Source: Octopus vulgaris
Taxonomy: Eukaryota
Direction of reading: 5' to 3'
NCBI GenBank assembly: GCA_951406725.2
Contig: OX597817.1
Location: forward strand, 106,392,001-106,456,000
DNA: 64,000 nt
Notes under the pieces: generated by a model
Database searches by the model: none
What the model was told of the DNA's origin: nothing
The model's input: the letters and a program-made list of their open reading frames with translations, nothing else
Translations under genes and position numbers: made by a program
Shown: in pieces, positions 24,151-60,212 of the stretch
Layout: the number at the start of each line of letters is the position of its first letter
Position numbering within the stretch: the stretch's first letter is position 1

Positions 24151-24336
24151 TATATATATATATATATATATATATATATATATATATATATATATATATA
24201 TATATATACACAATATATACATATATTGATATTGATATAAATGGTAAGACAGCAAAAGAATGAAAGAGACCTCGATGTTATGTAAATAGAGGAATTTATC
24301 TGTAAATATAATATGTGACAATTATTTGGTAGCCAT

Positions 24337-24397
24337 GATAAAACTCCAAGTTTCGGATGCCGAGGTGGAAATCTACGCCGCCATATCTTCTGTTATC
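24337..24397 (-). ncRNA. Type I hammerhead ribozyme motif, family A (core variant CAGAAGA)
   Basis: GATAA-CAGAAGA-stem II-GAAAC-ttgga-GTT-TTATC. Confidence 0.55.
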
Positions 24398-24499
24398 CGA
24401 CTATCAGTGAAAATGCTATGAAAACATTTTTCCTTAGCATTTTCTCCGATGGCCGGATAACTAAAGAGATGGCGGTGTGAGCATTTTCTCCGATGGTCG

Positions 24500-24560
24500 G
24501 ATAACTGAAGAGATAGCGGCGTGGATTTCCACCTCGGCATCCAAAACTCGGAGTTTTGTC
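24500..24560 (+). ncRNA. Type I hammerhead ribozyme motif, family A (GAAA mutated to AAAA)
   Basis: GATAA-CTGAAGA-stem II-AAAAC-tcgga-GTT-TTGTC. Confidence 0.55.
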
Positions 24561-24694
24561 ATGGCTACTGAATAATTGTCACATATTACATTTACAGATA
24601 TATATATATATATATATATATATATATATATATATATATATATATATATATATATATATATATATATATATATAATAGACCTTTATATAAATAA

Positions 24695-24840
24695 ATAACG
24701 TGAAATACACGAAGGGACGAACAAAAAGACAAACGGGTCATTCAAAGCCTTCATTCTTCAGTCAGAAACTGATCCCTCATCGCAGATTTCGGCTGTTTAA
24801 TTCTGAGATCCGCTCTGAATCAGCCAGCCACAGAAGGAAA
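24695..24840 (-). mobile_element. Diverged relative of the palindromic element at 58772-59157
   Basis: Shared gccttca.tcttcagtca...atttcggctg. Confidence 0.55.
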
Positions 24841-24957
24841 GAATGAAACGCAACAGAGACGAACATGAAACGAAAAATCTTTTTTGGGGACAGTAACGGT
24901 TAAAAACATGGATGACATAGGCGCCCTACGGCTTTGAGACAAACAGAGAGACACAAC

Positions 24958-25018
24958 TTTATTTAAAAGCAGCAGAAATTCAACAAAACCTGTTGAATTT
25001 CTGCTGTTTTAAATAAAG
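24958..25018. repeat. ~28-bp-arm hairpin
   Basis: ctttatttaaaagcagcagaaattcaaca-aaacc-tgttgaatttctgctgttttaaataaag. Confidence 0.85.
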
Positions 25019-55529: not shown

Positions 55530-55715
55530 AATACAGTTCTATATTTAAGAGATGAGGAGTTATGTACATTATTTACATTATTTACATTCGACGGATATTT
55601 GTCCTCATCTTGTTGTTAACACAACGTTTCGGCTGATATACTTTCCAGCTTTCTTCAGGTGTCTTGGGGGAATTTCCGAACCTGGATTCTCATTCCTTAG
55701 GTATTTTTCGATGTT
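55530..55715 (-). mobile_element. PLE pLTR-like fragment
   Basis: Contains a minimal hammerhead; bounded by microsatellite. Confidence 0.55.
55618..55663 (-). ncRNA. Minimal type I hammerhead ribozyme motif, family E, intact core
   Basis: GACAC-CTGAAGA-aaGCTG/CAGCc-GAAAC-GTT-GTGTT. Confidence 0.75.
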
Positions 55716-57626
55716 GTTATTGTTGTTGTTGTTGTTGTTGTTGTTGTTCTTCTTCTTCTTCTTCTTCTTCTTCTTCTTCTTCTTCTTCTTCTTCTTCTTC
55801 TTCTTCTTCTTCTTCTATCATCATCATCATCATCATCATCATCATCATCATCATCATCATCATTATTATTATTATTATTATTATTATTATTATTATTATT
55901 ATTATTATTATTATTACTTCCTTCGAGTAAAACCACCAATAGAAGAAAATATGACCAAAGACTGCGTGTACTCCATCCCAGCTTTGGTCGGCCATAGATT
56001 ATAATAGAAGATACTTCCCAAGTTGCCACGCAGTGAGAATGAATTTAGAACCATGTGGTTAGGAAGTAAAACCTGTTACCATACAGCTACGCTTGCTCTG
56101 GACACGTATCATTTAGCGTAAGGCTCTGGTTGATCTAAGTATTGGGAGTGGAATTGGATAAGAGGGAAAGCCTGTTGAATTGATCGTACCTGTTATTCTA
56201 AAATTCAATTTAGCCTAAGAAATACGCTTAGAGTACACGTGTCTGTGAAACTCAGCTTCTTAACACGTTTAATTTAACGAGTAGGTAGGTAGTTCAGTCG
56301 ATCGAATAACCGATAGCGCATCGTCGAAACCGATGGGGGTCCCATCATGTTAGCTAATGTGTTTATGGCCACGTGCAACGGGGAGGGAGGGAGGAAGAGA
56401 GAGAAAGAGAAAACAGAGAATATAAAAGTAGAATAAATGTACCAAAGTGGGTGATGAAGGGAGGGGGTATGGATGACTGTGGAGATATGAACTGATTGTA
56501 AGTGGAAGAGAGAAAGAGAGGGCATGAGTTTAAAGAAATAAGTAGATATAGTGGGTAAGTAAAAAAAAAAAAGCTAAAACATACGAGTGAAGGAGAAAAA
56601 AAGAAGTGAATATGAGAGAATGACAAAGTTAGAGAAACGAAGAGAGCAAGAGAGGAAGAGACGGAGGCGAGGGAGCGAAAGATAAAGAAGGGAGAGAGTG
56701 AGATGAGGAGGTTGGTGAATCAGTGTTAAAGAGTAAAGAAATCCTGCTTGCAAATCGAAGCTTGCATAGAATAAAACGAACCAACGAATCAATTAGAACG
56801 CATCCGTTTAACATAACTGACGAAGTTGGCCCCTTCCTATCAAAATAAAAAAAGAAATGGTGGCTGCTGAAGCAATAAAAAATATAAAAAAAAAAAAAAG
56901 AGTCCCGATGTAAGTGTTAAGCTATAGTAATGTTAGAGAGGAATTTAGAAATAAGTACCGAGGAAAAAGTGTAACAAAATACTCTGGTAACAGGTAACAA
57001 CACCTACTACTGAACTGTTATTTAGAATAGCCTGCTACTATATTAAGGCAAAAGAATTACTGTACACAGATCAGATGTTTGCATAAGTTTCAACTGGCTG
57101 CCGAGGTCATCGGCAAAAGTAGTCTAACTGTATTGTCAGGTCTGCTTATTGATTCCCGTGTCTTTTCTTCGGGCTTACGCCAAAGGTTTAGCTTCTGTTT
57201 AGCTGGAAAATGGAAGCTTGTGTACACATAAGAGTGTATGTACGTATGTACGTATGTATGTGTGTGTGTGTGTGTGTGTGTGTGTGTGTGTGTGTGTGTG
57301 TGTGTGTGCGTGCGCGCGCGTGTGTGCGTGCGCGCGCGTGTGTGTGTACGTATCTGTGTATGGATATATACGTATGAATGTGTACTCTTGTCTTGGCTGA
57401 CTAACTATCTGGGGGATAGAAGACTCTTAGAAGAATACACAAAGTGAGAGTGAGAGAGAAAGAGGGGAGAGAGATTTTTTAGAAGACTAGTTTACCGAGT
57501 AAAGTTTTGGCAGCTTCCTTTCCACTTTGTTGCCCGTCATTATATGTACATAAAACGAAAGATCGTCATGTGTGTGTGTGTGTACGTATGTACATACGAA
57601 CATATGTATGTATTGTGTATGTGTAT

Positions 57627-58001
57627 CAGCGTAGCTAGAGTGTGTGCCGCCTGGGGCGGCCCTTCTGTTTTCCACTTTCCGGCCCCCCACCCCCAAAAAA
57701 CACATTGCCTGCAGTAGATCTAAAAGTGCTGCCTCTTCAAAAATGCCGCCCCTACTGCCCCAGCCCCCAGCCACGCTAGTGTGTATGTACCTGTGTACGT
57801 TCGTATTTATATGTATTTGTATATATATCAATGCTCCGCAACCGGTATGCCGCGGCACACTAGTGTGCCACGAGACCATCCTAGGTGTGCCGCAGTGAAA
57901 CCTGAATATAATTTGTCTATACTTAGACAAATTATACTTAGTTCAGATGTGCCGCCAAATTTTGAAAAGAAGATAAGTGTACTGCAAGTGAAGAAAGCAC
58001 T
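57627..58001. mobile_element. Two adjacent hAT-type MITE remnants (~57627-57781 and 57829-58001)
   Basis: agcgtagct...agccacgct termini; caatgct...agcactg with repeated gtgtgccgc. Confidence 0.45.
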
Positions 58002-58771
58002 GGTATGTATGTATGTATGTATGTATGTATGTATGTATGTATGTATGTATGCATGCATGTAGGTGTGTGTATCTGTATAGTCAGAGCGTCGAATAAATTG
58101 CCTTGTGGTATTTGCTGCGATGCTTTTTGTTCTGCGTTCAAATCACAACGAAGTCAAATCCAAGGACCACTATTTAAAGCACCAGTATGTGTGAAGCGGG
58201 TGGGACAGAAAAAGAGATTTAATCGACTACGAATCAGTAGCGGGAGTACATAAGCTCGAGAATAGGAGCTGCGCTTGCACCCCTAAATTAAAATTTTTCT
58301 TGTCGAAATTTTTTTTAATGAAAATGCTTTAAACATCCTCCTGAAAAATTGGGTTTGCACCCACTAAAAGGATTTCGTTCCCGTACTTATGCCAGAGTGC
58401 GTAAGACTGTCTGACAGTGTCTTCAACTTATGGTATCTCCTGCAAGGACACTGGTACCAAGGTGTAATGAACCTTGCCTTTCTCTTTGGATATCGTGTGC
58501 ATCGTGGAAAAGAGGGGCTTGCAGTATGGGCAACTAGTTATCTTTATACAACCTTGTCCAGGTCTGTAGCCTTGAGATTCGTTTGCCATCTCACCGTGGT
58601 ACTACCTAATCAGACTAAAAGCAACTTTCCAGATGCAAATCCGCGGCTTCACGTAATGTAATAGATACCAAAGAAGAGAAACAATTGCATAATTATCTGT
58701 ATGTTAATATATATATATATATATATATATATATATATATATATATATATATATATATATATATATATGTA

Positions 58772-59157
58772 TATGTAAAAAAATACAAACTGGGACAGGA
58801 ACGCAAAACATTTAGAAGACGATACAAAAAGCCTTCAATCTTCAGTCAAGAACTGGATCATCTTCGCAATTTCGGCTGATTAATCTTGAGATTGCTCCGA
58901 TCTGGCCAGCCCCAAAGGAAAATCTAAGCCAAGCGCATTAGATTCCTTGGAAGAAAGCCTCCAAGGACTCTAATGCGCTTGGCTTAGATTTTCCTTTGGG
59001 GCTGGCCAGATCGGAACAATCTCAAGATTAATCAGCCGAAATTGCGAATATGATCCGGTTCTTGACTGAAGATTGTAGGCTTCGAATGTCCTGTCCGTTT
59101 TTTGTATCGTCTTCTAAATGTTTTGCGTTCCTGTCCCAGTTTGTATTTTTTTACATA
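58772..59157. mobile_element. Fold-back element (~180-200-bp arms, 8-nt spacer 58952-58959), probable PLE derivative
   Basis: Near-perfect inverted repeat flanked by (TA)n. Confidence 0.8.
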
Positions 59158-59349
59158 TACATATATATAGCGACGTCCGTACCCCTTTTGGTCTATATAT
59201 ATATATATATATATATATATATATATATATATATATATATCTCAAGATACAAGTGACGATATAAACCCGGAGGGATAAAAATATCCAAGATTAGACTGGT
59301 TGAATGGCTAATAAAGCAGGCACATACATATATAGTATTATTAATATTA

Positions 59350-60212
59350 TACAAAAGAAGAGAGAAGATAGAGATAAGATTTTAAAAATTTATTAACATT
59401 GACAAGACCAGACCTACAATTGTTTCAATTCATCAATTGCAGCATAAAAATTAACCAAATTTAATTGAATTTCACTAAATTAATTTGGTTAATTACTACA
59501 TGTGAGAATATATTCAGGGAAGGATGCGTTCTTCTTCTATCCGAATATATGGAAGCTCATTTAAGCACAATTACTTCTACTTTCTATTTTCCCTTAATCT
59601 TCATATATTCTCCCTTTATCTTCTTATTAATTAATAATTTTATTACTTTCTAGTATATTAACCTTACTTAGCCTTATATATGTGTGTGTATGTGTGTATA
59701 TATGTATATATATGCATATGTATGTATATGTGTATATGTGTGAGAGAGAAAGTGGGTGTACATGTATTACATGCATATATGTATATATGTTTATATTGAA
59801 TACCTAATTATTTCACTACTCTGCTCCCATAATTTAATAAACAGTCTATTGTTTTTTACACATCATCACTATTTTTCGTATTTTGCAAAGATATGTCTGC
59901 ATTATCATTATTTATATTAATTTACGACTAACTATATATTTTTATAACTGTATTTATTTTTATAACTATATATATTTTCAACTATTCTTCCTGTTTTTAT
60001 GTTTTCATTTTGTTTTAAATATAAGTTTCTTTGTGCATCCTTCCCTGAAGATCTTCTCACTTGAAATAATTAACCAAATTAATTTAGTTAAATTAAATTA
60101 CATTTAGTTAATTTTTATGCTACAAGTGATGAATTGAGACAATTGTAGGTCTTGTCTGGTCAATGTTAATAAACTTTTATTAATCTTTTCTCCATCTTCT
60201 CTCTTGTTTTGT
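59350..60212. mobile_element. Older fold-back element (arms 59350-59527 and 60035-60212) with hammerhead family D
   Basis: Diverged inverted arms; cc-CTGAAGA...GA[A/G]AC-AATT-GTA-gg. Confidence 0.65.

Follow-up and report, generated by a model that had tools for sequence, protein, structure and literature searches.

Inverted repeats beside TA/CA runs

The window analyzed here is a 64,000-nucleotide stretch of Octopus vulgaris DNA. Alignment of the window to itself by BLAST recovers the five inverted repeats that the initial annotation had listed, all of them adjoining TA/CA runs (self-matches 24149-24697, E 8e-72; 25144-27041, 99% identity; 38027-38237, E 2e-60; 58698-59251; and 59335-60230, E 2e-60). 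Each of the five is built from two 5'-truncated, outward-pointing ends of a Penelope-like element (PLE), with a tail on one side only. The limits first assigned to the elements captured the repeats themselves and missed the one-sided tails, most of which lie beyond those limits.

Element 1 (24230..24600) is a stub from an older subfamily of family A, its arms head to head, ~81% identical to a full-length element at locus L069; its tail occupies 24230-24297, its left arm runs to ~24426 and its right arm carries a 44-bp duplication (24436-24523). Element 2 (25153..27104) is an inverted insertion of the young autonomous family A2, with arms at 25153-26096 (minus strand) and 26097-27032 (plus) and a tail at 27033-27104. 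It includes 0.66 kb of a PLE reading frame (25438..26096, minus strand), comprising the 3' part with the GIY-YIG-like endonuclease end; the other arm holds its mirror copy. Element 3 (37957..38237), a family C stub, has its tail at ~37957-38026 and arms at 38027-38115 (minus) and 38123-38237 (plus). Element 4 (58772..59194) is an inverted stub of the non-coding family B, with its tail at 59155-59194. Element 5 (59244..60212), a family D inverted insertion, is lopsided: a tail at 59244-59349 is followed by a short arm at 59350-59527 (minus) and a long one at 59530-60212 (plus), 175 versus ~700 nt. A sixth inverted repeat, absent from the earlier list, lies at 47509-47929; it is MITE-like, flanked on either side by a 7-bp direct repeat and lacking a TA run.

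The proposed PLE origin of the arms holds up. Besides the truncated ends and one-sided tails, a parent element is present at L069 with the layout pLTR-ORF-pLTR. Read by eye, its 717-aa ORF has RT-like and GIY-YIG-like motifs, with a presumed resemblance to the Penelope/Poseidon type. Pfam returned a sub-threshold GIY-YIG match (E 0.011) for the protein piece in the window and no match for the full 717-aa protein; 992 homologues were found, and none of the 120 listed is a named protein. We base the PLE identity on motifs, layout and general background on such elements. The pLTRs of family A occur as partial tandems at L069, L071 and L072, and family B forms tandems at 682-868 bp.

Type I hammerheads

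Type I hammerheads had been assigned to four elements. Cores of this type are present in elements 1, 2 and 3 and absent from element 4, and those of element 5 had been overlooked. All eight type I arms have the C-G-S block order and the stems; the full canonical core is found in one of them, and the other seven depart from it at U4, G8, G12 or A14. In element 1, U4 is altered in the left arm (24336..24397, minus) and G12 in the right (24500..24561, plus). Both arms of element 2 (25181..25242, minus; 26943..27004, plus) have the C at position 4 that is found family-wide. The left arm of element 3 (38050..38109, minus) is the only one with every canonical core base; G8 is altered in its partner (38155..38214, plus). 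Element 5 has a long stem II, a region of ~83 nt, in both its short arm (59409..59521, minus; G8 altered) and its long arm (60041..60153, plus; A14 altered). Stem I of this family D hammerhead is just 2 bp, and its core conservation was judged by eye. No hammerhead family came up when the window was searched against Rfam (E up to 1); a strict type I descriptor matched twice over the two strands, and a relaxed search was not fully sensitive, missing known arms.

Helix III is palindromic in the type I cores of the window elements. In PMC4209133, dimer dependence is predicted from this feature for minimal type I PLE hammerheads; same-strand dimers would be needed, and these a hairpin cannot supply. 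The computed energy of the duplex is -172 kcal/mol versus -89 for the hammerhead fold, favoring the duplex by ~83 kcal/mol. Breakpoints of A2 copies give no clear signal of cleavage (by hand count, ~7 at the predicted cut versus 0-7 at each neighboring position), and no enrichment at the cleavage site was found among A2 5' ends, 3 of 95 of which fall at -34..-29.

A permuted hammerhead core in family B

In element 4, no GAAA-N-loop-NUH with stem I follows CUGAAGA, as the C-G-S order would have it. Each arm contains instead a core ordered S-G-C, at 58839..58911 on the minus strand (predicted cut just 5' of 58889) and at 59000..59072 on the plus strand (predicted cut just 5' of 59022). Stem I has 6 bp and two two-sided changes, stem III a paired insertion, and an extra helix three two-sided changes; this covariation, five pairs with two-sided changes, is drawn from essentially two families. 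No stem II strand lies within 1-2 nt of CUGAnGA. Two partners are candidates for the strand before GAAA, one on the upstream side of block S, reached through a multi-way junction, and the other 5 nt beyond A9; the helix concerned is invariant.

The predicted cut coincides exactly with the breakpoint of family B copies in 48 of 100 filtered rows, and with that of copies of a sister family in 16 of 27. From these breakpoints it is likely that the family B hammerhead cuts its RNA in the animal. Deletions after CUGAAGA, considered as cleavage scars, turned out to reflect query bias and are rare in unbiased loci. The family B unit, ~680-870 bp long, forms head-to-tail partial tandems, and no protein-coding parent or ORF could be tied to it or to the sister family; at L156, where a GIY-YIG frame lies 2.5 kb away on the upstream side of a B copy, that frame belongs to a separate insertion.

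Inverted insertions of A2 and the other families

Family A2, the source of element 2, is young and abundant. Its 717-aa reading frames are intact, the protein piece in the window has 150 scored matches, at 99-100%, and exact end matches number 2243. We surveyed 60 consecutive A2 insertions, taken as an unbiased set; a match set skewed toward palindromes was left out of frequency estimates. Between 35 and 37 of the 60 are inverted, the range arising from L201 and L218, which were classed as solo in one binning and inverted in another. The simple inversions number 27, and all have a one-sided tail and a junction of their own, 15 of them with 1-5 nt of overlap. The tail sits on the longer arm in 13, on the shorter in 10 (by up to 1.7 kb, in L080) and on arms within 5 nt of each other in four. 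Arms range from ~20 to 2460 nt, and some are internal fragments (L066, L083, L210, L235). Arms of one insertion share 63 variants versus 3.3 expected (52 pairs), or 34 versus ~2.8 once the outlier L247 is removed. The ~200-bp stubs that are nearly all hammerhead are indeed common, as had been supposed: such mini-hairpins make up nine of the 60 insertions. With solo copies included, 19 of 95 A2 5' ends fall at -122..-92 (0.61 per nt versus 0.026 upstream), and 18 of 62 arms in the tight-junction set end exactly at -98 by hand count.

That the inverted form dominates, as the initial annotation held, is true of A2. It is not true of family B (1 of 26 inverted) or family D (4 of 21), and inversion is probably a minority outcome in family C, where 14 of 27 sampled copies shrink to roughly a third once double sampling is taken into account. 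For family C a degraded parent reading frame (about 43%) was found in L149; for family D, an RT-like stretch alone matched, at 31%, in L144.

The simple A2 junctions are unique, as expected of one-off by-products, yet among the tight junctions (237 in the genome) identical ones recur in 14 of 50 and 5 of 50, 19 of 50 together. Recurrent junctions center on palindromic hexamers already present in the parent. The 14 hairpins that share one junction are spread over at least three subfamily backgrounds and show no inherited left/right asymmetry (distance 2.9 within a locus, versus 7.0 between loci on the same side and 6.9 on opposite sides; the tail flag is wrong for 2 of 10 loci in this comparison); these backgrounds suggest that they were likely formed anew each time. 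The five copies with an AACGTT junction are near-identical, so their sequence cannot separate them from a replicating set. Ten short family C hairpins have 10 different junctions.

How the hairpins may arise

We think it probable, going by their sequence, that the five hairpins are single-event insertion products of four Penelope-type families, primed from both target nicks. The features seen are 5'-truncated PLE arms, a tail on exactly one arm, locus-specific junctions and shared source variants. A PLE protein is known to cut and extend both strands, with two RT start sites delimiting the tail (PMC11167929). Both nicked strands of a TA-rich target would prime reverse transcription on the element RNA, in two priming events with different starting points: the pLTR end for one strand, the end of the tail for the other. 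Head-to-head joining of the two 5'-truncated cDNAs would follow, in many cases via a few bases of microhomology, and joining at palindromic hexamers would produce recurrent junctions. Transcription of family A may start near -98, as the DNA breakpoints suggest, which would make the shortest products almost pure hammerhead. As products, the hairpins would be dead ends that adopt a duplex and not a ribozyme fold; the initial annotation had proposed such a duplex as a candidate ADAR/RNAi substrate. Family B would be a non-coding PLE-like passenger whose S-G-C hammerhead likely cuts prior to reverse transcription.

Fold-back would build the same shape: a single cDNA, or an antisense template as proposed in PMC3846280, doubles back on itself where it has a short palindrome, and copying yields the second arm. 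Self-priming from palindromes is argued for inverted junctions in the Discussion of PMC3846280, and both the preference for palindromic hexamers and the variants shared between arms fit. Copying from a cDNA, however, cannot produce a second arm that exceeds the first in length or bears a tail that the first does not have, and of the 23 simple pairs with unequal arms, 10 have the tail on the shorter arm; the internal-fragment arms also look like those of twin priming. Fold-back may account for a near-symmetric subset of hairpins, and as the general route we hold it unlikely. Shared source variants, together with the fact that either arm can be longer, favor priming from both nicks, although gene conversion could also produce the shared variants.

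The initial annotation had gone further, to a non-autonomous class of hairpins transcribed, self-cleaving and re-inserted as whole palindromic units. Identical junctions are what a replicating hairpin would give, and the number of mini-hairpins speaks for it too. Yet the commonest recurrent junction, at a palindromic hexamer of the parent, appears on several backgrounds, simple A2 junctions are unique with arms of widely differing length, seven of the window's eight type I arms depart from the canonical core, and the duplex is computed to be more stable than the ribozyme fold. Nor did the data show a unit of constant extent whose junction is passed down within a clade; the class is largely refuted, and we rate it highly improbable. 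Long inverted arms and simple-repeat flanks could also suggest MITEs or assembly artefacts (such structures do trouble assemblies, according to PMC8557442), and the hairpins could well be mistaken for MITEs, as had been foreseen. Against this, the arms come from ORF-bearing retroelements and are truncated at the 5' side, the tail is on one side only, the two arms have diverged, and the true MITE-like repeat at 47509-47929 looks unlike the five elements. We give this reading almost no credence overall, and for families A and C it is already refuted.

Taken jointly, we put it at somewhat better than even that family B and its sister encode an active, non-circularly permuted (S-G-C) hammerhead, with stem II provided via a multi-way junction, that cuts the retroelement RNA in vivo, ahead of reverse transcription, and so leaves hundreds of copies beginning at the cleavage site, and that A2 inversions record twin priming from both target nicks. 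If real, the family B ribozyme would bring permuted hammerheads, in a novel wiring, into animal retroelements, contrary to the assumption that stem II has to adjoin CUGAnGA. Such a ribozyme would also be rare genomic evidence for PLE-associated hammerhead cutting in vivo; for the PLE studied in PMC11167929, no RNA-seq ends were found at the cut. The hairpin layout is already known, and its proper annotation is PLE, not MITE. A2, being young and abundant, offers a natural record of PLE integration in which arm lengths discriminate between published models.

Relation to known systems

The literature we covered, main texts in part, contains no paper naming palindromic hammerhead mini-retroelements and no report of an S-G-C hammerhead in PLEs. 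The closest relatives of the window elements are EN+ PLEs with a pLTR (PMC8557442, PMC3846280, PMC8969392), which share 5' truncation, partial tandems, an inverted 5'-truncated copy, a single-end tail, TA-microsatellite targets and head-to-head orientation. Tails here are ~40-110 nt, compared with 30-40 in the published inverted insertions, and, unlike in those accounts, inversion is the majority outcome in one family. Our arm lengths speak against the self-priming of PMC3846280 as a general route.

The metazoan PLE type I hammerheads described in PMC4209133 share the long helix II, palindromic helix III and predicted dimer dependence, and dual motifs ~100-700 bp apart on opposite strands are reported there for Schistosoma. 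Departures from those motifs are the C at position 4 in all of family A, the exceptionally long stem II of family D and the U-A pair that closes stem II in family C. Type-SGC hammerheads (HRIMA-1 and variants; PMC10085705) came from RefSeq, metagenome and metatranscriptome searches, with no animal retroelement among the examples in the passages covered. Family B shares their S-G-C order, pseudoknotted stems I/III, extra helix and covariation, and differs in that CUGAnGA is not immediately followed by the strand that pairs before GAAA. Animal non-LTR retrozymes (bioRxiv 10.64898/2026.07.22.740005) are likewise non-coding, hammerhead-bearing and arranged in head-to-tail partial tandems, as is family B; they are defined by tandem type I hammerheads, whereas family B has an S-G-C core and the window elements are inverted, not tandem.

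Inverted Repeats and Their Hammerheads

Self-comparison of the window recovered all five inverted repeats of the initial annotation where it had placed them; tails included, they are element 1 (24230..24600), element 2 (25153..27104), element 3 (37957..38237), element 4 (58772..59194), and element 5 (59244..60212). What it had mostly left out was the tail that each carries on a single side. Checked arm by arm, elements 1, 2, 3, and 5, which represent three families unrelated to one another, have a type I hammerhead layout with a palindromic helix III. Of these arms just one, on the left of element 3, is canonical throughout its core; the hammerhead of element 4 is not type I. 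Almost every copy of the young, active family A has C in place of U at hammerhead position 4 (e.g. 26948-26954). Another minimal type I hammerhead with a canonical core adjoins trinucleotide repeats at 55618-55663 on the minus strand and is probably another Penelope-like element (PLE) end. A sixth inverted repeat, at 47509-47929, has arms of 157 nt at 96% identity and a 7-bp direct repeat flanking both sides; we saw neither a TA run nor a hammerhead in it, and it is MITE-like, a useful contrast to elements 1-5. Reading-frame fragments at 1425-2399, 16561-17220, 23360-23746, and 52247-53135 we take to resemble LINE RT, Tc1/mariner transposases, and another retroelement. Tandem arrays of 184-bp period lie within a common interspersed repeat (22381-22729 and 49433-49840), and no host gene is evident within the 64 kb.

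Parent Elements

Searched against the genome (2.8 Gb, 227 contigs), the protein piece of element 2 gave 150 scored matches at 99-100% identity. Locus L069 holds the whole element: terminal repeat (pLTR), 717-aa ORF, pLTR, then (TA)n. Its tail is the sequence after the upstream pLTR, toward the ORF. Element 1, from an older subfamily of family A, matches this whole element at ~81% identity. For family C (element 3), L149 holds a degraded but nearly full-length ORF (~43% identity) in what is also an inverted insertion; for family D (element 5), an RT-like stretch lies at L144; family B (element 4) is noncoding, with partial tandems of 682-868 bp. Because Pfam support is weak and the listed homologues are unnamed, the Penelope identity depends on layout, on visually recognized motifs, and on published descriptions.

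Inversion and Its Origin

Inversion had been proposed as the dominant product, and for one family it is. A tight end pattern for A2, the young subfamily of element 2, gave 2243 matches, the first 100 of which form 62 clusters; of the 60 analyzed, 35 were binned as inverted (27 simple, 5 with tandems, 3 of other form), 24 as solo, and 1 as tandem. Inverted loci thus number 35-37 of 60, the upper end adding two binned as solo but inverted on closer comparison. The claim fails for family B (1/26), family D (4/21 top hits with 1.5-kb flanks), and probably family C. There, 14 of the 27 loci sampled by pattern (not counting the window copy) are inverted, a share that falls to about one-third after allowing for two sampling chances. 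At G000:C1:57208853-57222579, five A2 units on one strand stand head to head with two on the opposite strand.

Do the hairpins themselves re-insert as replicating palindromic units, the new class first proposed? All 27 simple A2 inversions have distinct junctions, as do the ten short family C hairpins examined. Identical hairpins do recur, a result that favors replication: searching with a pattern across the junction turned up 237 tight hairpins, and among the first 50, 14 have one common junction, 5 another, and 31 different ones. However, both recurrent junctions are centered on a palindromic hexamer that the parent already has, and the 14 are spread over at least three subfamily backgrounds. 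Nor do these 14 show inherited asymmetry: arms within a locus are alike (mean 2.9 differences, 10 measurable loci), and same-side arms across loci are no closer than opposite-side ones (7.0 versus 6.9, with tail flags wrong in 2 loci). We therefore read their junction as repeated de novo joining, and replicating hairpins are not supported. For five near-identical copies with an AACGTT junction, sequence cannot tell the two apart.

Every simple A2 inversion (27/27) has exactly one tail, and the tail arm exceeds the other in 13, falls short of it in 10, and matches its length in 4. Fold-back, in which cDNA copied on itself makes the second arm, is excluded for those 10, because folded cDNA can neither lengthen the second arm nor add a tail. 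Over 52 pairs, arms of the same insertion have 63 variants in common, 29 of which come from one locus, against 3.3 expected, so both would derive from the same source. A published PLE protein cuts and extends both strands, with the tail bounded by two internal start sites (PMC11167929). We infer that the target's two nicks both prime reverse transcription and that the arms are then joined by microhomology; this step is ours, since the accessible text of that paper uses "inverted" once, in another sense.

A2 5' ends cluster immediately ahead of the hammerhead, at -122..-92 (19/95), and 18 of 62 arm ends in the tight-hairpin set fall exactly at -98 by hand count, in sequence that we take to be initiator-like; the A2 cleavage site has no clear pile-up. 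A transcript beginning near -98 would hold little besides the hammerhead ahead of the RT start sites, and hence would yield the 200-bp stubs. At four loci (L066, L083, L210, L235) the inverted arms are internal fragments stopping short of the element end, twin-priming-like; two of these end close together, at reference 1727-1732.

The Probable Family B Ribozyme

Both arms of element 4 carry the order cleavage strand, GAAA block, CUGAAGA block (S-G-C). A young noncoding sister family, with about 1500 candidates and top hits at 98-99%, has a solo copy between elements 1 and 2 (24675-25088), with the same S-G-C core at 24755-24829 on the minus strand and a small hairpin at 24957-25018. Between the families, two-sided changes number 2 in stem I and 3 in the extra helix, and a paired insertion occurs in stem III. 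In the predicted register 93% of cells pair, versus 23-46% when slid; the alignment has 8 distinct rows and amounts to two families.

Among 26 unbiased B copies, 8 start 0-11 nt past the predicted cut and none within the 16 nt ahead of it; 15 others start farther upstream and 3 farther downstream. By hand count, 48 of the first 100 rows break exactly at the cut (461 rows in all, each a copy that diverges immediately upstream of it), and no upstream position collected more than 5; the sister family gave 16 of 27 such rows. The first free position gathers chance microhomology, but the equivalent A2 design gave about 7/100. As the break falls at the pyrimidine that structure alone predicts, cleavage is likelier than a promoter.

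Relation to Known Systems

Type I motifs of this kind have weak activity and act as same-strand dimers, according to the accessible part of PMC4209133, which already mentions dual motifs on opposite strands 100-700 bp apart; a hairpin here supplies one sense copy only. Predicted folding of element 3 gives -172.4 kcal/mol for the full duplex versus -89.2 with hammerhead stem I enforced.

Inverted truncated copies and one-sided tails, which the window hairpins share, are ordinary PLE features in what is available of PMC8557442, PMC3846280, and PMC8969392, and a new class of elements is not supported. What stays of interest is the mechanistic record of insertion and the probable family B ribozyme; our literature search, of partial coverage, found neither, and supplements may list animal SGC examples. 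In the accessible text of PMC10085705, type SGC has a stem II strand abutting CUGAnGA. The family B motif lacks this defining feature and so is not classed as type SGC, although it would work like one.
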